A program made the translations under genes and the position numbers. Under the pieces are notes generated by a model that was not told the origin of the DNA, made no database searches, and saw only the letters and a list, made by a program, of their open reading frames with translations. A stretch of 62,502 nucleotides of DNA, the filler included, from Dugesia japonica (lineage: Eukaryota), in NCBI GenBank assembly GCA_001938525.1. It is 6 parts of 6 records of this genome, joined end to end, with 100 filler letters (N's around TTAATTAATTAA, not from the genome) between each part and the next. Parts side by side here need not be neighbours in the genome. Positions count along the whole stretch, not along the records: positions 11,128 to 20,150 come from MQRL01340437.1; 5 more parts are not named here. One strand, 5' to 3'. Shown here in pieces: positions 1 through 34,765 of the stretch. Numbering within the stretch: position 1 is the first letter of the stretch; each line of letters begins with the position of its first letter.

Positions 1-2014
1 GGCCGCTGTTCCCCATACGAATCATTAAAAACACCAATATTAGATGGTTGTTAGTCAAAAAGAATGAACATGGTAATGAGAGGTGACNNNNNNNNNNNNN
101 NNNNNNNNNNNNNNNNNNNNNNNNNNNNNNNNNNNNNNNNNNNNNNNNTAGTAATGGCCATAACTCAAAATAATTGTCATAACAGAAATTGTGTGCAATA
201 GAAAATCATAGTAGTCTTATCAGTGACAATAAATAGTAGTGCCACTAACAAGGCCGATAACATAAATAAATAATTAAATTAGTAAAATTAAAATTTAATT
301 TAGTTTAAAAGTTGCACACGTTGTTGTCACTTGGCGACCTTTCTCCTTGACAACAGTGTGACATAATATATTAATTTGCCACCTGGGGTGTGCATCNNNN
401 NNNNNNNNNNNNNNNNNNNNNNNNNNNNNNNNNNNNNNNNNNNNNNNNNNNNNNNNNNNNNNNNNNNNNNNNNNNNNNATACTTTTCTTGTATCGTGAAT
501 TAATATGGTGGCAAACGAGTGATGTCTATTATTTAATGTCTATACACAACGGAGGTTGGAACTATATACTGATATTGGCAATTTAAAACTGGTGCCTTTC
601 AGAATTTCCCTGCTGCTGTCACATAGTGGATCTCTTTTTTTGATGGATTATAGCAGGATTTTATCAATTATCTGTGTGGAATTATTCTCGTGCATTTTCA
701 TCATATCAAGATTGTAACACGTTCGGAAACTAGTGGACAAACAACTTAACGGAACAGGGGATATTACTCACTGCGGTGTGTTATGTATTGAGAGGTTAGT
801 GAAACAATTTNNNTTTGATGTCACCGATAGAATAGTCGATTATTTTTAAATAAAAAGGTTTTGCTTTGAATTTATTTTTAATATACACTTATCACCATTA
901 TGTACATACTATCAATGATTTACAAAACATATTATTTATCCATCAATTTGATACCCTAATTTTTTCATGATTANNNNNNNNNNNNNNNNNNNNNNNNNNN
1001 NNNNNNNNNNNNNNNNNNNNNNNNNNNNNNNNNNNNNNNNNNNNNNNNNNNNNNNNNNNNNNNNNNNNNNNNNNNNNNNNNNNNNNNNNNNNNNNNNNNN
1101 NNNNNNNNNNNNNNNNNNNNNNNNNNNNNNNNNNNNNNNNNNNNNNNNNNNNNNNNNNNNNNNNNNNNNNNCCGAATTAACTTTTACTTTAACTGTTCAA
1201 AATAATTCGTTGGTTAATTTGCAATTCCGAAATAATAAATTACTGCGCGATAACTGATATAACCGTAACTTCTCGGTGATAAGAGACAAATTTGTGGTTA
1301 AACTTTTTCTGCTGCGTAACAATTAGAAATTTGTTGAGGGTTTTGATTGCGTTCTTGACTTGAATTAACTTGAAAAAAATAATGAATGTTTTCTGCTAAA
1401 ACCGAGGGTCCTTTTATAGGATTTTCTGATACACCCCGGCATCATTTTTATTGGCGGGTATTTTTGTTTTCGGATACCGGTGTCTTATTGGTGCTGGTCC
1501 CATGATTCCAAAATTTTTACAGAGTTTTAGAACTNNNNNNNNNNNNNNNNNNNNNNNNNNNNNNNNNNNNNNNNNNNNNNNNNNNNNNNNNNNNNNNNNN
1601 NNNNNNNNNNNNNNNNNNNNNNNNNNNNNNNNNNNNNNNNNNNNNNNNNNNNNNNNNNNNNNNNNNNNNNNNNNNNNNNNNNNNNCTCTTCTTGAATTTT
1701 CTTCACCGGATTCTCTCCGACTTTCCTGACCGGAATTATTTACCAAAAACAGATTTTACTTTAATTTTTTTGTTTAAATTAATTATTATTTTCTTGCATT
1801 CATTTCTTCATTGGATTTTTATTTTCTTTAATAATTTTAATAATTTTGTGATTTCTCTAATTAATCACATTGAGCTTGATCTTTTAAGTTTCTTGTTTAA
1901 TATTATTGATTGGTTTTTTCATTCTGGCTTCCTCCCTGGTTCTTTAATTTGGTACCGTTCATTTGTGACCCCTTTAACTTGGATTATCGTTCCTCGGGGT
2001 GTTTCGCCCCAACA
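1..2014 (-). mobile_element. 5' part of a giant-LTR-family element (relative of 14171-18573), cut by window start
   Basis: Minus strand begins TGTTGGGGCGAAACACCCC. About 1380-2014 is colinear with about 17850-18573 (shared ttttctgct.aaa, cagagttttagaact, atttgtg.ccc.tt.actt, gtttc.ccccaaca). Confidence 0.75.
1411..1495 (-). promoter_or_regulatory. LTR-type Pol II promoter (CCAAT boxes + TATAAAAG)
   Basis: Minus-strand TATAAAAG at 1411-1418 with two upstream CCAAT boxes. Same position as TATTTAAA/CCAAT in the 14171-18573 copy. Confidence 0.55.
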
Positions 2015-2189
2015 ATTGTGCGTCCCTAATATCTTCTTTTACGAAAGTTTCATCCGAATCCCTGCTGAGCCCCCGAAATTCTTGTTGGGGTTTTATCTAG
2101 GTGGGTTGATTTTTTCCATATAATTAAATCCATGGTGGTCGGCCTAGTAAAACCCCGCGGAGAATTTAATATGGTGTCCCCAAAAATCC

Positions 2190-2384
2190 AGATCTTCGGA
2201 ATGGAGCCGTAAAGAAGCAAAGGTCTCACATGAGCAAGAACGACTTTGGAAAGGTCAACTAGAGTCACTTGCGGAAATCATTTGGTACCTCTATGACCGT
2301 GAAAATAAACTGGTGGCGGACGTAATGGAGCTGCGGAACCCCATGCTACTCTAGCTCTTAATGGTAGACATGTCGACACAGACC
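2190..2384 (+). pseudogene. Giant-LTR cassette module B remnant
   Basis: Translates VSHEQERLWKGQLESLAEIIWYLYDRENKLVADVMELRNPMLL*LLMVDMSTQT. Homologous to 3152-3389, 9901-10236 and 14806-15126. Confidence 0.75.
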
Positions 2385-2434
2385 CCGCGTCCATAACTTG
2401 GTGTGATTCTCTTTTATATATAGAATAAAGTCTT

Positions 2435-3151
2435 TGTTGTACCTTTATGTATAGTATCGATTTGAAATGGTTGATTTATAATAATTGAATTGCATCTTAT
2501 CATTTGAATATAAATTTTATTCTTTTTATTTTAATTTTATATATATCAAATTTTATTATTTCTAATTTTATTTTTTAACTTAATGAATTTAATGATTTTT
2601 GCAATTCTATTTTCATGTGTATTAACAATTTCACAACGGAAAGAATAATAATAATCGGTAAGAACAGATTTATTGATTTTTGTAAACTGTTATAATAATT
2701 TTATGCAATTATCGAAAACTTTTATAAATATTTATTTTTAATTTGTAAATTTATTGGTAAACAATTACTCGAATTTTAGGTTTAGTGTGTAACGGCCGAA
2801 TGGCTGATTTAGTATAAATACGCTTATGAATTTTAGTTTTTCACCCACTTTTAAATCACAATAAAACCTAAGGTTTACAAAACCAACGCTTAGTGATAAA
2901 ATAATAACGTACCTGTCAAAGTTTTGTTAAAAAAATATAATTTTTTAAAGTAAATATATTATATTTTTACATAAGGTCGACACTATATAGTATATATATA
3001 AAAATATTCGTTATTTATAATAAAGATAATTTAAGGCTATATAAGGAAAAACATATAATTCTAATATACGATAATTGGATTATACTCTTCGTAAAATAAA
3101 TTCACGAAATTGTTGACGTAGGTTCGTAATAATCTTAAATCTATCCCAACA
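2435..3151 (+). mobile_element. Short solo-LTR family copy (5' boundary uncertain)
   Basis: Ends CCCAACA. Shares TAGTATAAATA, AATTTTAGT..CACCC, ACTATATAG and GTTGAC motifs with 3746-4598 and/or 30923-31753. TSD not convincing. Confidence 0.55.
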
Positions 3152-3389
3152 CCTCTATCGCCTCGAAAAAACGTAACTGGGAAGCTCAGATTGCTACAGA
3201 AAATGCCAAAAATAAATCCTATAAGAAAAGATGCTACGAATTACGTGAAGAGGCTTCTCTCACTCACACTCAAGAGTGCCCCTGGAAAGCTCAATTGGAG
3301 TCCTTCGCCGAGTTATTGTAGAATACGTCTTCAAATTAAAAGCTCGTGTATCCGTTAACCTTCTTGTAATAGACAAAGCAACCCAAACC
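3152..3389 (+). pseudogene. Giant-LTR cassette module B remnant
   Basis: LYRL/RNWEAQIATENAKNKSYKKRCYELR...THTQECPWKAQLESFAE...VIDKATQT, with frameshifts. Confidence 0.75.
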
Positions 3390-3506
3390 AAACATTTACG
3401 GTGTCATAAACAGTGTAAATAAATTATTATATACTTGATTGTTTCGTTCTTTAATCTGAAGTCATATTCTTTTGCTTAACGCATTGACCAATCTTGTTAA
3501 TTTTAG

Positions 3507-4645
3507 TACATACAGAACGATTAACTAGAAATTTAAATAAGTTCTATCGGTTGTTACGAGAACTCCGGCTAGAACGGCGGTATTATAAACAGCGGGAACG
3601 CATGTTGCTTCGTCACATCGAGATGAAGAACAAATTCATAAAACAATTTGATACCACTTATAAGAAACAGTCAAATCGTCTTTTAAGTAAGGTGCATTTT
3701 CTTACGCAATACATTTCCGATTTGCCAGCACGTTGCTGACAATAATGTTGTGGAAAGCAGACATTAAAATATAACAACATTAGCAGACATCAACATTAGC
3801 AGACATTAAAACATTAAAACATAACATTAAAAAGCAGAGCTTTTAAATATAACAACCACACACATATACAAAGACAAACACAAGCAATGAAAGCAAGCCA
3901 GAAACCGAATAATCAGCAGAGTGATCAATACAATCAATTCAACCATGCAGAACAATCAATCCAAGCAATTCAAAATACTTTGCATTTATCTGAATATCTT
4001 TTGTATTTATATTTGACATATTCTGTTGAACTTTACAAACTTTCATTTTATTTATTTGACATTATATTTTGTTATAAATTCTCAATTTATTTGAACTTTG
4101 TAAAATTTTAATATATTGGACTTTATGAATTTATATAATTATTAGATTTTACACTAAACAATTAATTGGATTTATTAAAATTATGAAATTTTTATTTATT
4201 TTAAAAGGATGTTTTTATTTATTTAATGTAATATTTTGATATTTCGCATGCATGATTAGACTGACTAAATAGTATAAATAGTCACCACAATTTTATTTTT
4301 TTACACCCCTTTTTTTTAATTATCAGAGAAGACTAATATCTTTTGATAACAGACTCGGAGAAAAATTAATTACTTGTAACGAACAGTATTTNNNNNNNNN
4401 NNNNNNNNNNNNNNNNNNNNNNNNNNNNNNNNNNNNNNNNNACTATATAGCCTATTTATATTTATATCATTCTATATATTAAACATATTAAGTCAAGATC
4501 ATTACATATATATTAATTGGATTTCATTTAAAAGTTTAAACAGAGCTCACGTAAAAATCGTTGATTTGCCTTTGTGAAATCCTAAAGACATCTCAAAAAT
4601 GAGGCAAAATTTAATTTTACGGAGGAAACACTGACAAATTTATAA
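3507..4645 (+). pseudogene. Giant-LTR cassette module C, split by a solo LTR
   Basis: ORF 3494-3739 (LLRHIEMKNKFIKQFD...FLTQYISDL) matches 14417-14800. The C-terminal EAKFNFTEE resumes at 4599 after the insertion. ttttag acceptor at 3506. Confidence 0.75.
3746..4598 (+). mobile_element. Short solo LTR inserted in module C
   Basis: Starts TGTTG and ends TCTCAAAA (CA mutated). Flanks ATAA/ATGA (decayed 4-bp TSD). Removing it rejoins the two halves of module C. Motifs shared with 30923-31753. Confidence 0.75.
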
Positions 4646-4864
4646 CCAATTAAATACAATGAGAATGCACAAGGGCGACATTGAAATGTAGAGCAGATGC
4701 AAATTACTGATTGACTAATTCAGAAAATTTAACTGCAATTTGATTCGCGGTTCAAGAACAAATATTTTAAAAACATTTCATCAATCAAATGCAGAAATAT
4801 TATTGGTTAACCAATCTAAACGCAGATAGTTTTAGTAACAAAGTTTAGATGAAATTAAATTAAT

Positions 4865-6455: not shown

Positions 6456-6480
6456 TATATATATATATATATATATATAT
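6456..6480. repeat. (AT)n microsatellite
   Basis: Direct inspection. Confidence 0.9.
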
Positions 6481-8544: not shown

Positions 8545-8559
8545 TAATAATAATGATAT

Positions 8560-8618
<59 letters not shown>

Positions 8619-8724
8619 GTTTAATTAAAATAATTTAAATTTTAAATATNNNNNNNNNNNNNNNNNNNNNNNNNNNNNNNNNNNNNNNNNNNNNNNNNNA
8701 TTATTATTATTATTATTATTATTA

Positions 8725-8772
<48 letters not shown>

Positions 8773-8785
8773 GTTATTATTATTA
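8545..8785. repeat. (AAT)n and (ATT)n tracts either side of an N gap
   Basis: Direct inspection. The strand switch across the gap may be an assembly orientation artefact. Confidence 0.9.
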
Positions 8786-9482
8786 ATGTTACGATTTTTC
8801 TTGGTGTTGCTAGTCTATTTATTTCCAATATTATCATCATTAACATAATTAGTATTTAATCTTAATAACAACATTACGTTTAAAATCGATGCCAGTGTCG
8901 TTATTCCTGGTCAGTATTATTAATACCCATATGATGATTACTTGTCTTATTATCGCCATTATTCTTATTAATCCGATTATTGGGACGTTAAAATGATCCT
9001 TATTAATCCCTAGTCTTCATTCCGATTAATATCCTACCATGATCATTGCCTAGCTTAACAAACTTATTGCCATATTTTATTTTAGTATGACCTCTTCTTA
9101 ATTTATTTCTAGTGAACCCAAACACCAATTCAACATGGAAGTTATATCCGTTGGATGACGGCCTTAAGAAGAAAAAACCTATAATGAATCCGCACAACTT
9201 GTGCTTTGGCATTCTGACCGATAACTCAGATATGCCCCAGCTGAAAAAAGAGCCACGCAGGTCAACGATAAGTAAAAACTGGACTTCAGCCGAGGCTGGC
9301 ATTCGGGTTATACGATTTTTTCGGGCTCCTGTAGTCTCCCCAAACATGGTTTACTGAGGACTTAGAAGCTATACACTTTAATAGACTTGCTGTTAAATGT
9401 CCTATTAATATGATCTAAATAGAATACATGTTTTTGATCTTATTATTATTGCATTTCATTCTACCACTCATGTTCTAATCTT

Positions 9483-9761
9483 TTGTTTTTAAAAGTGTCG
9501 CAATATGGATGGCGCATTTACAACGACATCACTGGTCACACCATTTTCCGTAGGATCGATAATCCCTATGTGCGAGATGCTGGCATCTTCGTTGACCGCT
9601 CTAACATGCCATCAATAAACGAGGAACTACAACGTCGTGCAGATGAGGTCGAACGCTGGCTTTATCAACACTGGCCGGCAAGAGGAACACGGGTGGTTAC
9701 AGTTCAGTCGTCACCAGCTTCCCCTACTTCTTCAACTAACGTAAACGTCGAGAATTATTAG
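9483..9761 (+). CDS. Giant-LTR cassette module A (unknown function)
   Basis: GWRIYNDITGHTIFRRIDNPYVRDAGIFVDRSNM...ERWLYQHW aligns with WEVLWDRRMERTIFKKYKNPHERNAGVLVDYSNL...ERQAFYQW at 15338-15748. T-rich AG acceptor at about 9495. Confidence 0.7.
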   Translation: MFLKVSQYGWRIYNDITGHTIFRRIDNPYVRDAGIFVDRSNMPSINEELQRRADEVERWLYQHWPARGTRVVTVQSSPASPTSSTNVNVENY

Positions 9762-9900
9762 TTCAATGCTTTAGCTAATACAGTATTTAGGACTTAAGTC
9801 TACTTTTATCTAATTCGTAAATCATAAATAACTGCTTAATTAAATCGATCTGATTAGTTTCACATTGCTGATTTTATTTCGTGAACTCATCCTGTTACAG

Positions 9901-10236
9901 GTTGGTAGCACCAATTAAAAATCTCCGCACAGAATGCGACGAGGAGGAAAGGACATGAGACCTCTATCGTTTGGCGAAGCGGAATTGGGAGGTTCACGTA
10001 GCAGCGGAAAAAGGCAAAAAATAAGATTTACATAAAAAGCTGAAGAGAATATAGGATTGAAGCTAAACTCTCCCACCCCCAAGAGAGGGTTTGGAAATCC
10101 CAACTAGAATCGTTCACGGAATCAATCCGATTGCCCCTCGAGAGAAAATAAATTGGTCAACGATATCTCGACTTGCCGAAAACGAATACCGCTTGAACCT
10201 TTGCTGGTCGATAAGACTACCCAGACCCGTAATTGA
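9901..10236 (+). pseudogene. Giant-LTR cassette module B
   Basis: ttacag acceptor, then T*DLYRLAKRNWEVHVAAEK...SHPQERVWKSQLESFTESIR...ENKLVNDI...RIPLEPLLVDKTTQT. Contains stops and frameshifts. Confidence 0.75.
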
Positions 10237-10344
10237 CAGTGTTTTAATTATATGACTTTAATATACTTGTCCTTGTAGTTCAAATTTCTGAATTCATAAA
10301 TTTCCTAGTATATTATTCCTATATTTAATTTTCACCTAATTTAG

Positions 10345-10676
10345 TGCATCGCATCCAGTGTCTACGGAGTCAAACGATGCCACAAGTTATTGTGTAGTGT
10401 CATAATCGAATAATTTTGTGCAAAAAAGTGCGAACGCACCCTCATTCGTCATATTCAGCAAAAAAACCAACTTATCAAGAAAATAGAGTTGGTGCCTAAG
10501 AAGCAGCTGGTTATCGCCAATCGGACCGTGAATAAGCTGCTTAACAAGTCAATCTTCAGACACAATACATAGCAAATCTAACGACCAGACCAAATCTTCT
10601 CCCCACTAGTCCGTGGCACAGCTACGATGACGAAGCTGCGTTCAATTTCACGGATAAAGTTCCAGTATCATTTTAA
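10345..10676 (+). pseudogene. Giant-LTR cassette module C
   Basis: tttag acceptor, then CHKLL...LIRHIQQKNQLIKKIE...TQYIANL...WHSYDDEAAFNF. Homologous to 14417-14800. Confidence 0.75.
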
Positions 10677-10793
10677 TTGAACCATATTTTCTGGTGTACG
10701 GTTAAATAAATCTTACATGTTGTCTCACTGATATTATCTCTTACGATCACGCTTGAATTCAGGGGATTTTGAACCCGAAATCAAAGGGATAAT

Positions 10794-10966
10794 CGTATAA
10801 TACGCAAGTCATAATAAATTAAAATTTTATTAAGGAAAAAATATTGACATAATACGCACAAGCGTATAATACGCAGATATAATTTGTTTAAATTTGCGTA
10901 ATTTAAAATTTATAATTTAATAATTTAAAGTTATCTAACACGTATTTTCTGGCATATAATACGCGA
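10794..10966. mobile_element. Possible pogo/Tc1-type MITE terminus fragment
   Basis: Four ATAATACGC motifs. CGTATTTTCTGGCATATAATACGC resembles TACCGTATTT-type termini (compare 61799). Confidence 0.35.
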
Positions 10967-11071
10967 TTAATACTTAAATAGATATTTATTTTGATGTTTT
11001 AGATAAAAATCATAATGATTAAGGAAANNNNNNNNNNNNNNNNNNNNNNNNNNNNNNNNNNNNNNNNNNNN

Positions 11072-11083
11072 TTAATTAATTAA
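11072..11083. other. Artificial scaffold linker TTAATTAATTAA (also at 20195, 29740, 39416, 53582)
   Basis: Each is centred in an exactly 100-bp N gap. Stop-codon linker. Confidence 0.95.
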
Positions 11084-11399
11084 NNNNNNNNNNNNNNNNN
11101 NNNNNNNNNNNNNNNNNNNNNNNNNNNATTGTTGTTTACACAAAGAGGTGTGAGGTGAACTGTCAATTATCTGAGCCGGTTACTGCGTAACCACCTACTT
11201 CGCTCGTCCTATCAACAATACTTTAAAAAACTCATAAAATTAATTTGTTATCTACACTTTATTTCACTTGTCTTCCTCCTTTTCTTTCTCTACTGGTCTC
11301 ATCTTAAAACTTTATTTTGTATATTACGAATAAAGTTGATAGGTTTTAGGTTCGTTTACGGTCGGAATTTGAGAAAAAGAAAGATATGGTCAATGATTT

Positions 11400-12200
11400 T
11401 AAAATTTCGATTAACTAAAGACGTGTTCATGTAAAAAGTAAAAAGAATTTAAGTAAAGATTATTTTCGAATTAAGAGTTTACAACGGAAAACATTATAGA
11501 AAAGATGCTCGTATTTTGTGAAGATAATAAAATGTTCGAAGAAGTGAATTGGTGGTAAACATATGAGCGGGAAAAAATACATTCTTGAAATTATTGGCCA
11601 GTTCAATAAATATCTAGCTCTTATCACATTGCCTAGGCAAGATAAGGAAATAATACGAAAAGCCATTTTGGTAAGTGAATATTGAGATTTAGAAGCTCAA
11701 GATAGATAGAACTAAATTTGGAAAACACTCCAATTACAGAGTTGTGAGAGAGTTTGCACAGAAGATAAATATTAAACTTTGCTTTTTAGTCCGTATCATC
11801 ACAGTGCAAACAGAAAAATTGAAACTCAGTTTACAATGATTTGAGATTTAAGTAATGAGGGATATCAAATTAGGCAGACATATTATTGAAAATAGAATTT
11901 ACGATGAACAGAAAACGACTGAAAAATAATTTGGAAAGAGAATCAGCAGAGACAAATGGCACTAATCGAATGTATTAGAAAAAATTAAAGAAAAAAATTC
12001 AGAAGTAACTATCAATAGAGAATGTAAAATAGAAGATTACGTCCTTATCAAGTTAGAAACATCAAATAAAAGCTGAGATCGATTTGAATGTTCTTATCTT
12101 ATAATTGAGAAAATTCACTAAAGTCTGTATATTGAACAAGGAAAAAATGGAAAGCGATTGTAGAGAAATGTAGATAAACTTATAGAATTAACTCACTCAA
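11400..12200 (+). pseudogene. Degenerate Gypsy integrase
   Basis: SPYHHSANRKIETQF (~11789, integrase SxYHPxxNGxxER motif). Decayed GPY-like FECSYLIIEK (~12083). Many stops. Confidence 0.65.
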
Positions 12201-12353
12201 TAAAACAAATAAATATTGTTGAGAATATTCTGTATATCTATAAGCCTAAAGTCTTTCTAGGAGTAACTTGATTCATAGTCTTCTATTTCATTTAATTACT
12301 TTATTCTATTCACTTACTCTATTCGATTCACTTATTCTTAATACACTCTATAC

Positions 12354-12836
12354 CATTGGTGGCTAACCCAAATGATCTTCTGGGTAACTTTGGAAATGCA
12401 TCATAACTCCGTGGGCCTCATATAAAATTATAACCCTATATTTGATTTAGACCCTTAATAGACATTTTTTGGAGTTAAAAATTATAACAATATGAATTAT
12501 TATTATTGTGTTTACTATTATTCTTACATGTAAACGTAGATAATATAATAATGATTTTAAACGCGCATATATAATTTAATCTTATAATTACAGTTTTTTT
12601 AATAAATATGCTTAACTTAAAAGAAATCATTCTCAATTTATATGATTTCCTGGATTTTAATGAAATTCTTAAATTGAATGATTTTAATGAACATGCGATC
12701 GTTCATCACACATAAGTTTTCTCTACTTTGGTCATTATAAAATAAGTATATTTTTTAAAAGTGTGATGAATCTCGCGGGCTGGAAAAATGTCCAGAAGAG
12801 TAGCATGCTGTCCGGGGCCTCGTGTTGCCCACCGTG
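12354..12836. mobile_element. Non-autonomous hAT element (MITE)
   Basis: Ends CATTGGTGGCTAAC / GTTGCCCACCGTG with GC-rich subterminal GGGCC motifs. 8-bp flanks CTCTATAC/CTCCATAC. Confidence 0.7.
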
Positions 12837-12849
12837 CTCCATACATTTA

Positions 12850-13900
12850 CCCAATTCCCAGATTTAATTAAATCATTCAATACATCTAGTCAATCTATTT
12901 AAATCATACTATATACTTAATCCACTCACTGAAGACAATAAAATACATTCAATAAAATAAATTCAAAATACATACAAAAATCATCGAAAATGGATTCAAA
13001 TAGCTGTGCTTCGTCTGGAGATTTTATAATTTCTTTAGTTCTACCAGTAAAAACTTTCATTTTCTGATAATTTTCACAACTTTGTACAATATTTCTTATT
13101 ATGTTTGTCATATCTTTCATATAAAAATTATTTTCAAAATACTTTTCAACCTTTTTATGTTCTGTATGACATAATTTATTGTAATAGTTTAAAACGACTT
13201 TTTCTCGTTTACACTCAAGTATCCATATTTTATTAAAAATAGTCTTCACAACACCATTATCACTTTTAAATTGACTTTCCTTAATTTCTATTGAATCTTT
13301 TTGCCAAATATTTTCTTTCTCATTGGTCATCATAGCTAATATTATTGTCTTGAAGTTAGCAATTTATGGGTCTGGATGTATCATTTGACATTGCACACAT
13401 GATGAACATTCTCTTCTTGGCATTGCATCTGCATTTCTATGTATTTCTCCCTTTCGGAATTTCATATCAATATCTAAGCTACTTAAATAATTCACCCACG
13501 TTTGAATTTGAGGTTTAAGTGATTGTTTTGTTTTTTATCATAAACGTAATGGCTTTCAGATCTGTCCTTAACAAAACTCGTTTTCCATACAGGTAATGTT
13601 TGAATTTATTTGTAAAGAAATAAATAGCTAATAATTTCTTTCTAATTATACAGTAACCCAATTCATGCTTGCTCATTGTATGTAATCATCATCTTGTAAT
13701 TGTGATAATACAGCTCTAATTCTGTCGAAGCTAGCATCTGTATCTAGTATTAAAGTTTTCTCGAAATCTGGATATGTCAATACTTGAGTTGAACGTAATT
13801 TATTTTTAATACTTTGAAAGCTTTTTTCACATTCTTCATTACAGATTAATTTTTTGTATTACGTCCACATAAAATTTCCAAAGGTTTCTGTAATTCCCAT
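12850..13900 (-). pseudogene. Gypsy pol remnant (RNase H to integrase N-terminus)
   Basis: Minus strand shows VLTYPDF..ILDTDASF..AVLSQ and HRNADAM. ORF 12926-13333 has a decayed HHCC zinc finger. Confidence 0.8.
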
Positions 13901-14416
13901 TAAACATAATAAAATTCATGAAATTAAAAGTTTCAATTATTCTTTTGTTTTTTCTATTTAGATCTTTTTTAGTGGTTATCCGAAATTTTCAGGAATTTCT
14001 GAAGAAGATGATTGTCAAAGATTTGGATAATTACCAAAAATAGAAATAAAAAGAAACAAAACAATATTTCGATCGAAGCTTTTAATTTAATGAAATTAAT
14101 TTAATGATTAATGGTTAAATCCAGCAATTATTTATTCAATAATTGTAGTTATAATACAACTCAATACATTTGTTGGGGTTCCACCTGAGTGGGATAGTAA
14201 GAAAAGGGTGGCTGGGGAAAAACAGCCTTCAGGGAACCCTTTCAAGAATTTAAATCCAATGCCCCTCAGTTGGATATTCAGTGCAGAGCGGTTGACCTTC
14301 GACCTTTACGGGAGGTTCACACTCGTACACCTTTAATTTGGGTTCATTAATTTCCATATTAGACATAGATACAACATTAGACAAAAGTTATCAAAAACAT
14401 CTATTATCATTACAAC

Positions 14417-14800
14417 TTATAGGTCTTCCAATACATCAGGATCTAACCACTGGTTCGGGTCAGTCTCCCAAAAGTCAAACGCGGCTAAATCGTCATTGTC
14501 ATCCCACTGTGCCCAGACAGGGTTTCCCATTTGGCTTGACAGGTCGGCTATATATTGCTTTAGGAATTCTATTTTCCTTTGCAATAGTTGTTGGGTTTCG
14601 GTTGCCAGGGCCTTAGTTTGGTTTGCTAAATCACTCTGTTTCTTTATTATGTTGTCAAGTTTTTTAATTACCCTATCACGTTGATTTAAATGCCTCAATA
14701 AAGCTTTATCTGTCTTTCGTTTCAAATGGCGCTCCACCAACAGACGGCGCATTATATGATGACATCGGAGGAGGCTGTTAGGGAAGTTGATACGAGGCAC
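14417..14800 (-). CDS. Cassette module C: basic/coiled-coil segment with acidic-aromatic tail
   Basis: Open 127-codon frame beginning at a tttcag acceptor. Homologues at 3507 and 10345. Confidence 0.7.
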   Translation of the reverse strand: MPRINFPNSLLRCHHIMRRLLVERHLKRKTDKALLRHLNQRDRVIKKLDNIIKKQSDLANQTKALATETQQLLQRKIEFLKQYIADLSSQMGNPVWAQWDDNDDLAAFDFWETDPNQWLDPDVLEDL

Positions 14801-14805
14801 TGAAA

Positions 14806-15126
14806 TAATGGTTTGAGAGGGATTTTCTCCCGGAGCAGCAAGATGTCACTAACCAGTTTATTTTATCGGTCATGGCTGGACCGGATCATCTCTGAAAAAG
14901 ATTCTACCTGCTTTTTCCAGTCACGCTCTTGTAAATGGGAGGCCTCTGCTTCTTTTTTAAGAGTACGCATTTTTTCTTATATCGAAGAACTTTACTATTC
15001 GCCGTTGCCACCTCTGCCTCCCACCGTTGCTTGGCGAGCCGGTAGAGATCCCATGTTATTTCGCGGTCTTCACTAGTATCCCGCATCTTTTGGTGGGGGC
15101 TGAGGGACAATTTAGTGATGAGTGCA
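14806..15126 (-). pseudogene. Cassette module B (frameshift, stop, TQT tail deleted)
   Basis: ITWDLYRLAKQRWEAEVATANSK../ASHLQERDWKKQVESFSEMIR..DR*NKLVSDILLLREKIPLKPL. ttgtag acceptor. Confidence 0.75.
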
Positions 15127-15337
15127 CTACAAAATATACATATTATCGTGAATAACACTTAGAATTCTATAATTAAAAACAGGCATGTTAATGATAAGTC
15201 TGGCTAACGATTACCGATAGTAAGCTTACGAGATCTACCTACGAATTGAAAACAAAAAATATTTCTTTGATAACCACTCAAAACATCAAACATTTATTTC
15301 CGTCAATGTAGAACAAGAAAACGCCGAACTCATCTCT

Positions 15338-15748
15338 TTATGGCAACGGGGTTGGTTCATTATTTTTTAACGCTCCGCCACTAGCTTGATTCCGTATATT
15401 CCATAAGGTATTCCCAACGTCTATAGAGAATCTTGTGTTCCGGGGAAGATGGTTAATCGACACAGGCAATAATGTGGGACCATCCTGCCAAGTACTAGTG
15501 ATCTGGTTAAGTACGGATTCGATGGTGGTAGTTCGATGTAACACGTCTTGAGTGCGATCAGGGCCTTTCCATTGGTAAAACGCTTGACGCTCTGCTGCGG
15601 CCCATTCTCTTTCATTGTCAGCGTCTTCACTAGACAAGTTGGAATAGTCCACTAAGACACCCGCATTGCGCTCATGAGGATTCTTATACTTTTTAAAAAT
15701 GGTTCGTTCCATGCGTCTATCCCATAACACTTCCCATACGTGGTCCAT
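15338..15748 (-). CDS. Cassette module A (136 aa, unknown function)
   Basis: Open ATG ORF, GC-richer than its flanks, homologous to 9483-9761. ttgtag acceptor 10 nt upstream. Confidence 0.7.
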   Translation of the reverse strand: MDHVWEVLWDRRMERTIFKKYKNPHERNAGVLVDYSNLSSEDADNEREWAAAERQAFYQWKGPDRTQDVLHRTTTIESVLNQITSTWQDGPTLLPVSINHLPRNTRFSIDVGNTLWNIRNQASGGALKNNEPTPLP

Positions 15749-17880
15749 TTATCAATTTCTACAATAAAGAGCAATTTTAGTACAGAAACATAATATGATA
15801 ACGGAAACATAATGACGATGAGAGTTGACCCATGCAAGTAGATTTATAAATCAAAATATACGAAGTGAAGGTACTGATTTTATTTGAACTAAAACATATT
15901 CAGGGATGGCTTTTATAATGAAATTTCATTCTTCATCGAGATCCACTGAGACGGATAGAGAAAACATCTCCGCGAAACACGCTTAATCGGTTTCGTCGGG
16001 ATGTTCCACGCGATGTGGAAATAATAAATGTCCGATTAATTGACGCGTCCGGGAACGTTTGCGTTCCCGCAGAATCAACCAAAGGGTTCTTAGCAATATG
16101 TTGGACATAGGTTATCTAAAGAAAAACATGTCAACATTAATACCCCATGCTCGATAAATTGATACCAGTTATCATGTATAGTAATAATATACATCACGTC
16201 GCTATTAGTGAAAGGGTCAGACATATCTTTACCTCCCCAAGGGTAATGAGAACTGAGATCTATAAGTATAGACGCAATAACAGAAATAGGGATATAAAAT
16301 GATAATTACAGACCTCAGGACATAAGACTCCCTACTGTGTCATTTGAATTTATATCATTAATGTGCAGGGTATTGCTATTAATAGGAAGCATTTTTCCGG
16401 TGAGTATCAATATAATATTGGCATATGATAATTGAGATTTACATATTTATTTTTTTTCGTATTAATCGGTAATAAAAGAAAATAGTGTAAAAACATCTAT
16501 TTTTCCCCATTTTGAATTGGGCGGTGATTGATCACTTGGCAACTGAAGGCTAATAACAGTCTGCCAATAACACTACACCCGCACACACCACCATCAATAA
16601 AGAAACAGCTGAACAGGCAATGCGGGCCAGATTCTACACACCTCATTTACCTCAACTAGTCAGGATGAATTACCGTCATATATTTTTTTTCATATCTTCA
16701 TAACACCAGTAATCGTGGTAATAGCCGTCGTAATATTAATACAGTTAATGATCATTTTAACACGGATGAAAGAAATAACATCATTTTGATAGGCATACTA
16801 GAGTTAATACCGATAATAAAAGATAATACGGGCTATTTATAATAATAAGTAATATATCGATGGTCATAAAATCGCAAATAATAATCGATTCATTCTGAAA
16901 TTTCTTGTAATACGGTAAATGATAGTAACGGGATGATATTTAATTTGACACTCATTTTCAATTACGAATTGGTAATTACATCTACTGATAGGTTTTACTA
17001 GAACTAAAAATCAGNCATACATATGCAGCCTGATGCTGCAAGAAAATATAGATAGATGTGCATCCGGCGTATGTGTGTTAATGGNGGTTATTAGACAACT
17101 TAGGTTGCTACCCAAAGCATAGAGATAGTGTGTATTACATGAACCGGAGTCGTGTGCAGACTAAAAGGGCAAACTGGATGATGGATACAACCTGTATTGT
17201 GCAAAGTGACCTGGGCACATGATTAGCTATGCTTATTTTAGGAATTTGAGATCTGTTGAAAGGCGAAACATGCATGCCAAAGTATTCTCTTTCTGTGGTT
17301 GAGGCGACTAATAATCACTGTGCATGTCCTAATTGAAAAGTGAACGGCAATATAGACATTGTTAACAGGTGGCATGATGGATTAAAAAAAATCTTTTTTC
17401 TTTTAAAACTCGTTTTCAGATAACCTCCATATTTATTATCAATTATCTAATCAATGGGTTATAATTAAGTTAACCAATAGATATATTTATCAATACAGAT
17501 TTATTCATTAATTTTATTTAACGACACATCATATAATATTTAACATTAAAAATCAATTTCTTTCATAAACAATTACTTACTATCAAATTCTGCAACGGAA
17601 TGATTTTCAATAATAAAAGCGATTCTTTTATTCTGCTATCTTAGTCACTATTTTTCTTCTTACAAATCAACCTTTTTCGATGAATCCTGATTTCGTTTTA
17701 ACTGCGACTACAATTACGATTTTTCTCTTCTATAAAATTAATGATTTGATGAAAAATGATTTTCTATAATAATTGTCCGTTTACGTGGTAAGTTCAATTT
17801 CTTTGATATACAAAATTGTCTGTACTCTGTATATTAATTTATGAATAAATAAGTGCTCTTTTCTGCTTAAAATCAGGGGG

Positions 17881-18015
17881 TTTAAATACCGTTTTACCAG
17901 ACACCCTGACATGTTTGATATTGGCTGGTTATTTTTAGTTTCATTCTTCTGTCTTTGATTGGTTTTGGTGCCAATTTTCTGTAATTTTTTCAGAGTTTTA
18001 GAACTCTAATTGGCC
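17881..18015 (-). promoter_or_regulatory. Promoter of giant LTR (CCAAT x3 + TATTTAAA)
   Basis: Same position as the promoter at 1411-1495. Points toward modules A-B-C. Confidence 0.5.
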
Positions 18016-20056
18016 GTTATTTTTAGGACCTCATGTGATTCCTGGTGCTTTGTCTTATCTTTATTTTCTGAATCCTTATTGGCCACCTCTTTAGATCCAG
18101 GTAGCATCCTTCTGGTTCAAGGTATATTTTTTTTGTGGATAAATTTCAATTTCTATGCTGTTGTTTCTTCGAATTTTTCTTGCTACAAGGTCCTGAAGTT
18201 TCCGTGGACGGAGTTATTCGTGGAAAACTGATTTTGGTTTAATTTTAATTTATTTTTCGTTCGAAATTAATTAACGCTTTCTGATAATTAATTATAATAT
18301 TTTCTTTATATTTTATTTATTTCTATTAATAATTTCTTTGATTAGTAAAATTGATATGGTTGGCTTTGATCGTCCCAACTCTTTGTCTTTACCCTTTCGG
18401 TAGTTTCTTTATTCCTTTCATCATAATTTAGTCCTTCGTGATTTTCTGCGCCTACTTATCTTGTCATTTTCCTTCAGCGTTGATTGATATCTTCTTTTAC
18501 TTTAAACTATTAATTCTTCTTAATTTGTGCCCTTTTACTTTAGCCAATTACGACTGGGCGTTTCACCCCAACACATTTAAGATGCTCGATTAAACAAATA
18601 AATTCATTAAATATAATAAAACTAATACGCTTATTTTATACAATACACTAAATAAATCAAGTACATTTTTCCATCCATATTTTTGCCTTATTGCACCGAA
18701 AACTCGTTTAGCCAACATATTCTAATGAGTTTACTCATTTTTGTTTACTTAAAACAACATTATTAATGATTAAAGTAATAACATGAAAAGAAATTAGATA
18801 TTCATATATATCCACATAGAAAATATGAATTCAGAGTTGACTGAATCAATACCTGCCACCATCTTCGTGAGATAAAAGAAAAGACAAATGAAAGAAATCC
18901 GTTAAAAATGTAATGAAAATTTAAAACCACAGCTCCAAAAAGCTAAGAAAAAGGACCGGAAATTAGAAGAAAAGGCGTCGGCATATCGAGAACAAGAATC
19001 TTTATTGCAAACGCGACCAACACTTGCTCAAAATACTAAATAAGTAGGCCAACCGAAAACAATCCGTGTTTCATAGTTTGAAGTACCACACATATGAGAG
19101 TCGAAATTAAAAACAGTTAAATAAATTTTGTAGTATTAACAGATATTGAAAACCGATTATCAATTAAATTTTGTATTGCTAATACATCTTGCATGTAATT
19201 AAATACAGACCTCATAGATTCAGAGTTTAGTACAAGGAGAACATGTAAAAAAGACAAAAAAAGCCCCTTAATATTACATCTGTGTCGAACGCACTTCATT
19301 AACAAAACGAAACCACTAGAAACTTACCTCATCAGTTCCGAAAAAAAGAGAACTTTGTGAGAAATTCAAAGTTCCTGTGATGACTCCAAAGACGTACTCT
19401 GAGCAAACAGTCATAAATACTTGTGGTTTTTAGAATGGATGATTCTAGTCAAAATATTTTACTAGGTAAAAAAGTTTAAAGCCGGAACGAAACTTATGGA
19501 AACCAAACAAAATGAATGGCTTAATTTGAATTATATACAATGGGAATAAGGTAAAATATATAAAATAAGCTAAAACTTTGACTTGCTGGATTCAAACCAA
19601 AGGATGAGGTCATGCATTTCAAATAATGGATTGGAGTAATTGGAACAAATCTGGGGATGAACTTAGGACATTCGTAAAGATTTGTAATTTTTTGAAGATT
19701 TATCTAGTCATAGAAAATTAACCAGAATAAATAATCCAATCGAACCAACGTGCTGGACATGAAAAAGTATTTATGGATTTGAGAANNNNNNNNNNNNNNN
19801 ACAATTGTAGAAAGCTGGCCTCTCGAATTTGCCAGAAATGTAAGAGTTACGGAAATTCGAATTAATTTTATTATTTTTATTTAATAAATATTCTAATCAG
19901 TTAGTTGTTATTGAAGTTTGATAGTGCGCAAGGATATTGTAACTGACAACCATACCAGAACTGTAAATGCGGTGACAAGGCAACAGCATCAGCAGAAAGC
20001 AATTTTAGATGCGTTTCCAAAAAAAGCGAGTAGGTAGATAGTGGCGCACTGTATCA

Positions 20057-20072
20057 CCCCCTCCCCCCCCTC
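20057..20072 (-). other. Polypurine tract preceding a 3' LTR start
   Basis: Minus strand GAGGGGGGGGAGGGGG is immediately followed by TG (TGATACAG at 20056). Same strand as the Gypsy pol at 21413-23630. Confidence 0.65.
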
Positions 20073-20378
20073 AAGCTCAAATTTTTTCAAGGTCGATGAT
20101 ACAGTATACCTGTATCTGATTGGTCCGTGATTTAGTATACTCAATTCTTANNNNNNNNNNNNNNNNNNNNNNNNNNNNNNNNNNNNNNNNNNNNTTAATT
20201 AATTAANNNNNNNNNNNNNNNNNNNNNNNNNNNNNNNNNNNNNNNNNNNNAACTTGTTTTTCGTTATTACGATCCTGGTTTTTTTTCGCTCTTTATTGCA
20301 ATATTTTGATCTGATTTCACTTTGAATTTGGCTATTTGTAAGATCTCGTTTCTTTTGTTCTACATTGATCCATAATAA

Positions 20379-21412
20379 CTAAATCTCTGTGCATAAAGTA
20401 ATTTGACAACTTCCACATAATTTCTTTGCTGTTGTCATGTTGATTGGACATTTTGTAGGTCTGAAATTTTTACAGTTTCCTTCTACGTTCCATGGTGAAT
20501 GCGCTTCTTTGTTTTTGTCTATCTCGAATCGATTTAGTTTATTAAATGTCCATCTTTCTTTTTGTCTCATCGTAATTCGTAGACATGGTTTACCCAATGG
20601 TTTCCAGTTGTCTACGGATCCGTGTCCTTTCATTCCATATCGTCCACATCTTGGATTGTCGCATATTCGATTTTCTTGAATTATTCCAATTTCCACTGAA
20701 TGACAATATTTATATCTCGTATAAGTATATCTTGTCTATTTTCAATTATAGTTAGATCATTATTCAGCAGAAACTTTTTCATGATCTCCTTAGTTGATAG
20801 TTCAATACTTACTATTAGTGGTTTTGCTGCCGATAAGCCTGTTAAATGATTGAAGACACATCTAACTTCACTACTTATTATTTGCCTCGCATTTGTTATA
20901 CAATTACTACACGATTGTTTATATTTCTCCTTGGACATGTTTAATTTTATTACCACCTCNNNNNNNNNNNNNNNNNNNNNNNNNNNNNNNNNNNNNNNNT
21001 CTCTCCATACTTGCAATGATACTCGCTTAAGTTCTCTATCCACATGTACAATTTTATCTTGTGTCGTTCGTAAACATTGGTAACATATCTTTAACAATTG
21101 ATTCTTTATCAAAGTTTCTGTCTCTTGTCTCGTTTTGTTACAGATTTTACATAGATAAGTTTCTTTGTTTGGTTCTAGAGTCCCCAAAATTCCTTCTCTT
21201 GCTTTTGCTGATAACATCATTACACGATGTATTGATCTGATTGGATATCTCTGTTCCGCATTTGGCTTGTCTAATTTAAAGCGAACTCGTTTCAATTTAT
21301 GCATTTCCGGTTCTGCTTTCACTAGATTTTCTTTATCTGTTTCGATTTCCTTGGCTGCTAATTTACATCTTGGTACATGTACGATACTTGGTTTCTTTAG
21401 TTGTTTTCCCAA
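20379..21412 (-). pseudogene. Cys-rich C-terminal extension of Gypsy Pol
   Basis: ORF 20681-21412 is in frame with integrase ORF 21413-21889, separated by one stop. Motifs CKIC, CYQC, CSNC, then CDNPRC and CGSC in 20379-20696. Confidence 0.6.
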
Positions 21413-23630
21413 TTATTTTAATTTCAAATTTGTTGCCGTTGTTTTGATCACCATATATAGGCCTTTATTTGGTCTCTTTAATTTATCTGTCTTGCCAATA
21501 TCGATGGTCGGTGTGTTTACTAACACTAGATCTCCCTTTTTAAATGTATGAGCTTCTACTTTACAATCGTGTAATTCCTTGTAACTTTCCTGACTAAATC
21601 TTCCATTGGCTTCTGCCAATTCCCACATTTCTTTCATTCGCTCCTTCATGCCTGTCCCGTAATCGTCTTCATCCATGCATTGTGAAATTGGTGGCTGATA
21701 TTCTAAATTGATAGGCATGTTGCATTCTCTGCCATAAATTAAGCTGAACAGTGTTGCTCTTGTTGTCGGATGTACTCCCATTCGATACGCAAATAGACAT
21801 AAATGTAAATGTTTGTCTACTTCTCTTTGATCTTTTGAAGCATAACTCGATATCATTCTTGTTATAGTTTGATTGAATCTTTCTGTCATTCCGTCTGTTT
21901 GCGGATGATATGCTGATGTTTGTAATTTGTAAATATTAAAGAAACTCGTAACGTTTTTTCATTAACTCACTCAAAAAGTTATTCCCTTGATCCGTTAAAA
22001 TTTTCTTTGGAGGTCTATAACGACTAAATACTTTATCTACTAACACTTTGGTAATCGTCGCTGCTTTTTGATCTCTCAACGCAAATGCCTCTGGAAATTT
22101 TGAATAATAATCTACCACTGTTAAAATATATATCTTTCCGATGTTCGTAGGTGATAATGGCCCAATTGTATCCATTGCTATTATATCCATCGATGCTGCT
22201 GGCACTGGGATTGGTTGTAGCGGAACTTTGAATTTCTTTCCTGTTCCTCTCCTTGCTGCGCATATCTGACATTGTTCCACCCATGTTTTTATACTTGTCA
22301 TTATATGTGGCCAATAATATTTTGATCTCAATTTTGATTCTGTCTTTTTAGCTGACATACGGCCTCCAAATATTCCATTATGATATTGTTCTAAAATCTT
22401 TGCTCGTCTATTTTAAGGTATTACTAATAACATTTGTCGCTTTCTTTCATCATCAACCATCCATTGACTATTGCGTATCGTCCACCTCGTTTCTTTAAAT
22501 GTTCTTTCATGCTTTTATTACACTCGACTTTACTCAAATCGTAATGTGTTAGATAATCCAGAATTATCTTAACCTCTTTATCATCATCTTGATCCTTCTT
22601 GAGACCTGTAAAATCTTTGTTCTCTGCTAATATCATACACAAATTTCGTATTTCTCGATTCATTAATTGCTGAATATTAATCACTTCATCATCTTGTACT
22701 TTAGTTATTTGCCTTTTCCTCCGGTTCATCTGTGAATTTCGATCTTGACATATAATCTGCATTTTCATTTGCTTTACCCGATTTGTATTTTATTAATGGT
22801 GCATATTCTTGTAGTCTCATGGCCCATCGTGCCATTTTATTTATCTGTAACGGTTTTTGTCCGATCGTTGTAAGCGGTTGATGATCTGTATACACTACTA
22901 GTTCGTGTCCAAGTACTAATTGATTGAAATGCTTTACTGCTTTTACAATTGCTAAGATTTCTCGTTCCGTTGTACTATAATTCTTTTCTGCACTTTAAAA
23001 CGTTTTACTAAAATATCCGATTACTCTTTCTCGACCTTCTACGTCTAACTGACTCAATACAGCTCTCATTGCATATCCACTTGCATCTGTTGCTACTATA
23101 AACGGTTTCTTAAAATCTGGTTGCACTAATATTGGTGTTTTTCTCGTATTGCCTCGAATGCCTTTTGATGTTAGTCTGTCCAAATAAATGTTACCTCTTG
23201 TCTCACTAATAATTGAATTGGTTTGACTATCGTTGCAAATCCTTTTGATAAATTTTCTGTAATAGTTTACCATGCCTAAAAATACTTGTACATCGTTTAC
23301 ATTCTTCGGTACTGGCAATTTCTTTACTGGCAATTACAATATTTGCTGGGTCTGGTGGTTTTTCTTGATCTGATATTAGGTGACCTAAGTACGCACTTGA
23401 TTTTTTGCCCATTCGCACTTTGTAGGTTTTACTCTGAGATTCCACATTCTTAATTGCACAAATACATTACGTGAATCTTTCAGGTGTTCCTCAAATGTCG
23501 TTGAAAATATTAATAAATCATCGATATATACCATACTCTGTGGTATTCCGTGGGTCACAAAATTCATTGTTTGTTGAAAAGCTGCTAGTGCATTTGTCAA
23601 TCCAAATGCCATCTTCACAAATTGATATAA
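21413..23630 (-). pseudogene. Ty3/Gypsy pol (RT-RNase H-integrase), disrupted
   Basis: MAFGLTNA and YIDDLLIFS (RT). TDASG and YTDH (RNase H). CQIC, MDTIGP, TDQG and ERFNQT (integrase). Order is RT-RH-IN. Confidence 0.95.
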
Positions 23631-23699
23631 GGTTTCCCTGCTGAAAATCCTGTTTTCTCTTTATCTGCTTCTTCTGTTTTAATTCTCTAATATCTTGTA

Positions 23700-24290
23700 C
23701 AGTTAAAGCAGTTTTGATTACCTGCTGATTGCAAATTATATTGTCTACCATTACTTTCTCTTCTAGAGTTATTAAATTGTCCTCGGTTATCTGAAAGATT
23801 CTGACCTGGAGTCAACGATTTTAACAATGGCGGTATATTTGCTGGTATGAAATCAGTTATCTTTGGAATTTTCTCTGCTTCCTCGATTTTAAAGATACTT
23901 GCCTGTTTCTGTGGGACTTCTACCTTTTGTGATACTCCTGCTTCATTTACAGGAGTTTTTTTTTCATCTACCGTTTTTTGCTGTCTTAAGTTTACCTATT
24001 TACGCACATCCGTATTTCTGAGACCTTTATTAAATATTTCAAGAATTCCTTTATCTTGCACGTCTTCTCCAAGCTCTAATTTTTCGAGTCTCCATAGTTC
24101 TGTTGCATAAACTTGTAATAATTCGTCTTTTAATTGTTGTCTCGCTGTAAAATCTTGGACTTCCTGTTCTTGTAATGTCAATTAAAGCTTTTTCGCTTCT
24201 ACCCACGTCTTTATTCCATCTTTGACCAATTTCGCTTTATTCCAATATATCGTCTTTGCCGATCCTTTTAAATACAATGGTATAGAATTT
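23700..24290 (-). pseudogene. Gypsy gag remnant
   Basis: RQQLKDELLQVYATELWRL...FNKGL resembles the retrotransposon Gag capsid C-terminal motif. Protease and RT N-terminus appear deleted. Confidence 0.55.
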
Positions 24291-29621: not shown

Positions 29622-29696
29622 TGTTGGGGTGAAACACCCATTTATTCATAAAATAAATCGATGGAAGAAATAAGGTAAAAGGAAAAGCAATAATAN
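29622..29696 (+). mobile_element. 5' terminus of another giant-LTR copy, cut by gap
   Basis: TGTTGGGGTGAAACACCCA matches the reverse complement of 18555-18573 at 18/19. Confidence 0.6.
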
Positions 29697-30921: not shown

Positions 30922-30922
30922 A

Positions 30923-34726: not shown

Positions 34727-34765
34727 CAAGTATAAACAATTTGATTACAAATTGATTCATTACTG

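Follow-up and report, generated by a model that had tools for sequence, protein, structure and literature searches.

A likely solo gypsy-type LTR in Dugesia japonica that carries coding modules and may build their start codons by splicing

Solo LTRs are usually regarded as regulatory debris. A unit found in DNA of Dugesia japonica raises the question of whether such a repeat can carry genes of its own and, if so, how these would be expressed. We analyzed it within a window of 62,502 nucleotides, which is a concatenation of genomic parts with artificial 100-bp linkers; the features are collected in Table 1. The reading that we favor, and consider on balance probable, is that the unit is a solo gypsy-type LTR carrying modules that serve as alternative last exons, with the final A of a shared leader completing their start codons.

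Table 1. Features of the unit, its surroundings, and its relatives (positions along the window)
Feature	Position	Strand	Remarks
Whole unit, likely solo LTR	14171..18573	-	4,403 bp
TSD CATT, 5' side of unit	18574..18577	+	
TSD CATT, 3' side of unit	14167..14170	+	
5' short inverted repeat TGTTGGGGT	18565..18573	-	Fits TGTTRNR (PMC3601003)
3' short inverted repeat ACCCCAACA	14171..14179	-	
Decayed gypsy pol, insertion site of unit	12929..13870	-	RT connection, RNase H, integrase zinc finger
Promoter-like block, putative function	17844..18005	-	CCAAT 17962, CCAAT 17924, TATA-like 17888
Predicted leader exon	17581..17887	-	307 nt without ATG; final A, then GTAAGT donor at 17580
Module D	15926..16108	-	Short frame, EHPDETD motif; acceptor-like AG at 16115
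Module A	15338..15748	-	136-codon open frame
Module B	14800..15126	-	Starts AG|TG; broken here
Module C	14417..14799	-	Starts AG|TG; 126 open codons past split codon
Relative: 5'-type end at 2014 and homologous promoter block	1374..2014	-	
Relative: 3'-type end	2083..2110	-	CA at 2084-2083
PBS candidate, tRNA-Pro-like	2058..2075	-	7 nt behind 2083 end
Relative: B fragment	2208..2351	+	Inverted relative to 2083 end
Relative: decayed B and C	3148..3739	+	B 3148-3330, C 3507-3739
Relative: decayed collinear cassette	8915..10664	+	Upstream block, extra AG|TG frame 9113, A 9496, B 9882, C 10345
Relative: 5'-type end	29622..29695	+	Cut off by linker

The borders of the unit read CATT|TGTTGGGGT at 14171 and ACCCCAACA|CATT at 18573, which verifies the TG..CA ends, the inverted repeat, and the exact 4-bp TSD described in the initial annotation. 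The inverted repeat extends over 9 bp, beyond which the two ends are divergent, and the terminal sequences (TGTTGGG...CCCAACA) match the LTR end consensus TGTTRNR...YNYAACA (PMC3601003). By themselves, the ends are only modestly beyond chance: a 4-bp TSD match alone has a probability of 0.6-0.8%, and among 300 shuffles of the 9-kb piece that contains the unit, 30 held some 9-bp inverted repeat that starts in TG and is accompanied by a 4-bp direct repeat. The insertion call carries weight because three further related termini, the collinear interruption of the decayed pol around the unit, and a multi-copy signal point the same way. Both flanks map to adjacent parts of one gypsy RT with fitting spacing, the match of the right flank (18700-18593) to the RT core being weak (E 2.7). 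The unit is multi-copy along all of the tested part (13950-17014), in which 30 of 30 bins were covered by contigs from both DNA-type runs (X1 and X6), mostly 90-95% alike to the unit. Summed depth over this part was very uneven (about 12 to 75,000), with peaks at 15907-16009, the region of module D, and on module B.

A six-frame domain search (stops read through as X) detected no RT, integrase, transposase, BIR, or RING in the unit, and tblastn with two gypsy polyproteins likewise gave no RT, integrase, or transposase, as initially stated. The related termini reported at 2014 and 29622 are indeed present as 5'-type ends, the latter 74 bp before a linker. Behind the homologous 3'-type end at 2083 lies a candidate PBS that matches the MLV PBS-Pro at 14 of 18 positions, the best match in the whole window, and an errantivirus Pro-type PBS at 10 of 12, the only such match, although it sits in a diverged relative, is 7 nt away from the end, and starts with C rather than T. 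An exact-pattern search for a tRNA with a fitting 3' end returned no viral loci and five metagenome loci, none of them a tRNA. Purines make up 10 of the 20 bases before 18573, where no polypurine tract is expected if the LTR is solo, and 11 of 20 before 29622; there is no clear tract before 2014 either (13 of 20). We regard it as likely, with good confidence, that the unit is an LTR, the lone end-repeat of a gypsy-type retrotransposon. The end consensus, the TSD, the misfit with Ginger transposons considered below, and the tRNA-Pro-like site that follows a homologous 3' end all support the original solo-LTR proposal, which nevertheless stays at the level of likely.

The claim of a protein-coding cassette is borne out by comparison of modules A, B, and C with their paralogues in the window. 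Over 368 codon pairs, which were picked by protein similarity and are to that extent biased toward low pN, pS was 0.80 versus a pN of 0.39. Identity at the three codon positions of the same pairs was 0.54/0.68/0.35, and stop-containing pairs numbered 4 in the true frame versus 28-60 in the five other frames. Judged from these comparisons, all three modules are truly protein-coding and under purifying selection. None of them could be assigned to a family in the libraries searched: Pfam gave only sub-threshold coiled-coil matches, module A had no homologues in these libraries, and module C had none in the word index, among 1.84 billion representatives, or in metagenome contigs. A search of viral folds with module C yielded nothing below E 9.5, the best Atlas match of module C (0.86) is a lead only, and the fold model of module A was unusable (pLDDT 38). 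Module D showed no significant similarity to the 9113 frame (73 of 100 shuffles were as good) or to the next frame upstream (29 of 100).

How might these modules be translated? The CCAAT/TATA promoter initially placed about 690 bp from the 5' end is recognizable in its motifs, the TATA-like element lying 686 bp from that end, and the layout of this putative promoter is kept in the copy starting at 2014 (1374-1534; 68% identity over 162 bp). The predicted leader downstream is free of ATG, a property matched by 13 of 1,857 windows of similar length and by 4 of 2,000 shuffles, and a second candidate donor at 17576 likewise follows an A. The proposal that modules A, B, and C each follow a pyrimidine-rich AG holds in part. 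AG acceptors are found at 15126 for module B and 14799 for module C, but their pyrimidine tracts are unremarkable, as 45 of the 241 AGs in the unit score equally well, and the paralogue places the start of module A in the ATG register at 15748, not at 15758. The modules begin AG|TG in one phase. Among seven module copies, which represent three families rather than seven independent cases, TG was found at the homologous first codon in six, a preceding AG in five, and both in four, compared with a background frequency of TG after AG of 5.4%. Both the leader and the AG|TG tests were picked after inspection of the data. Since the starts read AG|TG and the leader, itself free of ATG, has an A as its last base ahead of a canonical donor, each start codon would be created at the splice junction.

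A more conventional interpretation accepts the solo LTR and the modules but supposes that the latter use their own genomic ATGs or a coding upstream exon, AG|TG then being a conserved phase-1 acceptor. Module A does have a genomic ATG at 15748, codon 17 of module C is a Met, and no junction read was found in two RNA runs over 14362-15906. Yet the paralogue of module A aligns from codon 1 while its first Met is at codon 38, module B and its paralogue have no Met ahead of their breaks, and the leader lacks ATG throughout; we leave this interpretation a real if small chance. Alternatively, the unit may be a recombined or deleted derivative of a larger element with shorter true LTRs, the modules stemming from an internal accessory region between the outer ends. 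The uneven depth, which implies that some parts are common to far more abundant relatives, would fit such an origin, as would the rearranged state of the 2083 relative and the fact that within the window ends and modules occur together in one copy only (14171..18573). Against it, the unit encloses neither a direct repeat nor a PBS nor a second terminus, and the 8915-10664 relative is collinear across the upstream block and modules A, B, and C. For that relative no termini were found, and a candidate homologue of the 3' end behind it did not reach significance (163 of 500 shuffles). We consider a derivative of this kind unlikely.

It is also conceivable that an LTR picked up parts of a lineage-specific family of host genes and passively carries them as the modules. 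The layout is exon-like, and the selection signal is old (synonymous sites are saturated) and could predate capture. However, every copy in the window stands in a repeat context and most are broken, no host homologue was found in the libraries searched, and a host seldom retains a single exon in thousands of copies, as the depth peak on module B would require; the chance of a host origin therefore appears slim. Least credence goes to a Ginger-type DNA transposon that is non-autonomous, moves by cut and paste, and carries passenger genes. According to the excerpted description, Ginger1 and Ginger2 share with the unit a similar size, 4-bp TSDs, and TGT ends of the pattern TGTNR, but their TIRs measure 40-270 bp as against 9 bp here, and their TSD is CCGG/CCGT (Ginger1) or lies within RTATAY (Ginger2) as against CATT (PMC2836005). 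They also encode a gypsy-integrase-like transposase, which the unit lacks, as non-autonomous copies would too, and the PBS candidate behind the homologous end of the 2083 relative is again at odds with Ginger. For Sola, the other transposon type named in the initial annotation, the six-frame search likewise gave no transposase in the unit.

Under the favored model of a solo LTR with splice-built start codons, the element would have inserted into an old gypsy pol with duplication of 4 bp and would then have lost its internal part through LTR-LTR recombination. U3 would comprise approximately 700 bp, and the modules would occupy a very long R/U5 region ahead of the PBS, where they would be copied into both LTRs and hence persist in solo LTRs. 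Transcription would start near 17860, and the leader would be spliced to one of several acceptors, with A and TG joining to ATG; a start codon made in this way would restrict the accessory proteins to spliced RNAs. The predicted structure of module C, a long helix with a basic N-terminal part and an acidic aromatic tail, would resemble the layout of a transactivator (basic coiled coil, acidic aromatic tail), and regulation of the life cycle of the element itself is the most likely role of the module proteins, though only a weak suggestion. Equally tentative is the broader view of a giant gypsy LTR family in which alternative splicing makes R/U5 an operon of orphan accessory genes, with start codons splice-built from one leader. 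In that family, thousands of solo LTRs would be self-sufficient cassettes (one product likely a transactivator), still expressible and acting on the element family or the host.

LTR-borne accessory genes are already a known kind, e.g., MMTV sag, which is placed in U3. Like the modules, sag is a protein-coding gene in an LTR that is under selection and is present on solo LTRs of its family too, but it is a single gene in a vertebrate retrovirus LTR according to the portion of the source used here (PMC11998498), whereas in the unit at least three or four modules follow the promoter block, and the LTR is an invertebrate one of gypsy type. We found no sequence similarity between sag and the unit. 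Excerpts on Burro/GYPSM1 portray planarian gypsy elements of >30 kb with an internal part of up to 25 kb, implying multi-kb LTRs, and with thousands of copies and accessory ORFs (PMC6431247). The likeness, by description only, extends to what is likely the same kind of host; the Burro/GYPSM1 accessory domains (BIR, MATH, BCL2, ankyrin, env) are internal and absent from the unit, and these excerpts mention no LTR ORFs (PMC6431247). Six Smed errantiviruses have also been described, with neither an LTR nor a PBS listed for them (PMC13524379). A splice-built start codon has a precedent in env of springer-subclade errantiviruses in Drosophila, where, in the excerpt consulted, splicing joins an AU dinucleotide to a single env ORF located downstream of pol (bioRxiv 10.1101/2023.08.03.551782), as opposed to the A plus TG predicted here for several alternative exons within the LTR. 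Among gypsy-type elements, the MDG1 group (sORF1/sORF2; PMC11952523) and rice Retrosat2 (ORF0; PMC3485330) are described as having small orphan accessory ORFs ahead of gag, the latter with LTRs of >3.2 kb and many solo LTRs. Unlike the modules, these ORFs lie between LTR and gag and are lost from solo LTRs, and MDG1 transcripts are given as unspliced (PMC11952523), in contrast to the spliced RNAs predicted for the unit.

The suggestion that every solo LTR works as a self-contained unit of expression is not supported for the copy at 14171..18573. Module B has frameshifts near 15087 and 14955 and a stop at 14865-14863, module D has an in-frame stop at 15985-15983, and the portions read of two RNA runs (X22 and X21; 88% likeness) contained no reads on modules A, B, or C (14362-15906). 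This copy is decaying and probably silent. If the model is true of the family, recombination that deletes gag-pol leaves behind whole accessory genes with a promoter, at high copy number, and a retrotransposon would have gained, by an unusual route, a gene programme like that of complex retroviruses, with one leader, several acceptors, and a junction-made start codon. Strong-stop DNA of about 3.7 kb would then be needed. Planarian LTR elements are, from what is excerpted of one study, the main piRNA targets, with tissue-dependent activation (PMC8532177).

Two further candidates in the region were rejected. The gypsy pol at 20700-24100 was discarded as the unit's own internal region, as an artificial linker stands between them and the TSD closes the unit, and a Cys/His-rich stretch at 17030-17400 that is RING/BIR-like by eye left Pfam empty in six frames. 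No tRNA or Rfam families were found in the region. The unit contains 17 AATAAA/ATTAAA motifs, with no RNA 3' end seen in the runs examined. Module D, the 3'-type end at 2083 with its PBS candidate, and the artificial linkers are features beyond those of the initial annotation.

The unit at 14171-18573 is confirmed as observed: the TG...CA ends, 9-bp inverted repeat and exact CATT TSD described in the initial annotation are all present, with CATT abutting the unit on both sides and the orientation running from 18573 to 14171. A 4-bp match is expected by chance in 0.6 to 0.8% of cases. When the piece was shuffled 300 times, 30 of the shuffles produced at least one 9-bp inverted pair starting with TG and accompanied by a 4-bp direct repeat; the real piece (11128-20150) holds exactly one, the unit itself. 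Searched separately against a gypsy polyprotein, the right flank (18700-18593) matched RT residues 663 to 697 weakly (E 2.7) and the left flank, from 13870, matched from residue 795 onward (E 1.6e-7), 320 bp of flank corresponding to 98 residues. That the flanks are collinear with adjacent RT parts on one strand further supports an insertion; the left flank also carries RNase H and integrase remnants by Pfam. Consistent with the earlier claim for the first three, no RT, integrase, transposase, BIR or RING was found inside the unit by six-frame Pfam and gypsy polyprotein searches.

The unit is probably an LTR, judging from its ends, the end types of its relatives in the window and a candidate primer site. 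Its ends match the LTR consensus TGTTRNR...YNYAACA (PMC3601003), and they depart in TIR length and target from what is described for Ginger (PMC2836005), one of the DNA transposon types that had been named as rival identities. Beyond 9 bp the two ends diverge, and the relatives carry each type separately: the related termini claimed at 2014 and 29622 are indeed both 5'-type, and a 3'-type end occurs at 2083 besides. Seven bases behind the latter lies the primer-site candidate, which agrees with the MLV tRNA-Pro primer site used as query (PMC4587795) at 14 of 18 bases, where no other position on either strand exceeds 12, and with a Pro-type errantivirus PBS (PMC13524379, supplementary file 1) at 10 of 12, the only match of at least 10. 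Counting against LTR identity, the candidate belongs to a relative and its first base departs from the reference; its exact end gave 0 viral loci and five metagenome loci, none of them tRNA, and the 68 bp before 2014 contain no clear PPT. Just these 68 bp (2015-2082) separate the 3'-type end and primer-site candidate from the same-orientation 5'-type end, a layout that reflects either a nested insertion right behind a PBS or a minimal LTR-PBS-LTR element. An inverted B lies 125 bp from the 3'-type end at 2083.

Coordinates of the unit, its modules and relatives, and other features of the window
Feature	Position	Strand	Remark
Unit	14171-18573	-	4,403 bp; in piece 11128-20150
Module A	15338-15748	-	open, 136 codons
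Module B	14800-15126	-	frameshifts near 15087 and 14955, stop at 14865
Module C	14417-14799	-	open, 126 codons past first
Module D	15926-16108	-	fourth frame, in-frame stop
GC-richer stretches	17030-17400; 16497-16646; 16090-16224	-	short or broken frames, one Cys-rich (49 codons); no Pfam match
Collinear relative	8915-10664	+	decayed; in piece 1-11027
Paralogues of A, B, C	9496; 9882; 10345	+	order retained
Upstream frame	9113-9357	+	80 codons, AG|TG start; unrelated to D
Other relatives	1374-3739		in piece 1-11027
Further paralogues of B, B, C	2208; 3148; 3507
Short repeat, left flank	14054-14097		highly abundant; RNA reads in both orientations
Broken gypsy pol	20379-24110	-	RT, RNase H, integrase; Cys-rich frames at 20379-21412, weak C4 zinc-finger match
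hAT-like remnant	25427-28222		short inverted ends, by eye; no Pfam hAT match in two pieces
Polinton/Maverick-like cluster	29941-37491	+	decayed, by eye; integrase core at 32367 (Pfam); ATPase- and capsid-like frames without Pfam match
Penelope-like GIY-YIG remnants	41897-42304; 45653-46803		weak Pfam match; 296-bp inverted repeat
DSL/EGF exon	56152-56445	+	Delta/Serrate-like host gene; Pfam DSL domain
Linkers, n=5	11028-11127; 20151-20250; 29696-29795; 39372-39471; 53538-53637		artificial, identical, 100 bp (44 N, TTAATTAATTAA, 44 N)

The proposal that modules A, B and C are protein-coding is supported by ten ungapped paralogue pairs (368 stop-free codon pairs), in which pS was 0.80 and pN 0.39, although picking pairs by protein similarity biases toward low pN, and codon-position identity was 0.54/0.68/0.35. 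Stops occurred in 4 pairs read in the true frame; the other five frames gave 41, 60, 35, 28 and 28. One opposite-strand frame likewise had pS above pN (0.70 versus 0.40), as expected when third positions coincide. In the unit copy A and C are open and B is broken; all three keep their order in the collinear relative, whose upstream DNA is also homologous to that of the unit (0 of 500 shuffles). Sequence searches returned no homologues of A or C, including 1.84 billion representatives and metagenome contigs for C; for B, compared in pieces with Pfam, no match reached the threshold. C is modeled, from a two-row alignment, as a single helix over residues 8 to 91 (mean pLDDT 80), with no viral fold match to the model; it has 15 K/R in residues 10 to 60, and 11 D/E and 6 W/F in its last 32 residues. 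The structure model of A was unusable. The frame at 9113-9357 is a candidate extra module, and the GC-richer stretches are possibly further decayed ones.

How such modules might be translated is suggested by their starts. Among the seven copies with a placeable start (A, B and C in the unit and at 9496-10345, plus the C copy at 3507, with truncation or decay excluding the B copies at 2208 and 3148), the homologous first codon has TG at bases 2 and 3 in six, AG directly before it in five and both in four, TG following AG in 5.4% of background sites; this test and that of the leader were chosen post hoc. The frame at 9113 also begins at an AG|TG, the fifth, accompanied by a T-rich tract, and the paralogue of A can be aligned from codon 1 yet has its first Met only at codon 38. 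The CCAAT/TATA promoter proposed about 690 bp from the 5' end corresponds to a promoter-like block 686 bp in; the copy ending at 2014 retains this CCAAT/CCAAT/TATA layout at a distance of 597 bp, with 68% identity across 162 bp. From the TATA-like box to GTAAGT at 17580, a candidate donor preceded by A, run 307 nt free of ATG, part of the unit's longest stretch lacking that codon; 13 of 1,857 like-sized windows, and 4 out of 2,000 shuffles, did as well. Given the AG|TG starts, one such leader spliced to alternative acceptors would supply the A that completes ATG in each module; a splice-assembled start codon is described for springer-subclade env (bioRxiv 10.1101/2023.08.03.551782). An AATAAA at 17632 precedes the candidate donor by 52 nt; with such spacing a donor might suppress a 5'-LTR poly(A) site.

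On balance we lean toward a gypsy solo LTR with modules spliced from a shared leader whose A completes their start codons. The original observation was borne out; of its interpretation, the LTR identity and the coding modules gained support, but not the "self-contained expression unit". Two of four raw RNA runs were mapped: X22, read to a quarter (13.6 million reads), gave 208 partial reads in 5 of 30 bins and X21 (10.5 million reads) 5 reads in 2 bins, with none on 14362-15906, and the suggested mapping of splice junctions yielded no junction read in either. That the unit is silent in normal animals would agree with LTR elements being under piRNA control (PMC8532177) and lends the expression claim no support.

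Parts of this arrangement are already known: an LTR-encoded gene in MMTV sag (PMC11998498), orphan ORFs upstream of gag in the MDG1 group (PMC11952523) and rice Retrosat2 (PMC3485330), and giant planarian gypsy elements (PMC6431247). No gypsy LTR holding a spliced cassette of several genes appeared in the literature searched, though the primary Burro paper, a recent Burro1 study cited in PMC13465017 or Repbase/Dfam may record one. Supplementary file 1 of PMC13524379 lists no LTR or PBS, from a 3-kb flank search, for six of six Schmidtea errantiviruses, the outcome that very long or distant LTRs would produce, which makes them candidates for the parent element.

Over 13950-17014, all 30 of 30 bins have contigs of the DNA-type runs X1 and X6, most of them 90 to 95% identical. 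Within this range summed depth, which does not equal copy number, is lowest (about 12) over the exact, apparently unique piece 16104-16484 and peaks at about 75,000 (14774-14876), 26,000 (3' end) and 15,000 (15907-16009). This shows that the unit belongs to a repeat family in which far more abundant relatives have B, D and the 3' end in common. Run X17, from a second organism, held a 0.06 share of the unit's words. The window is AT-rich, and its five linkers mark six concatenated pieces, so that adjacency across them carries no meaning; the DSL-domain exon identifies it as animal.
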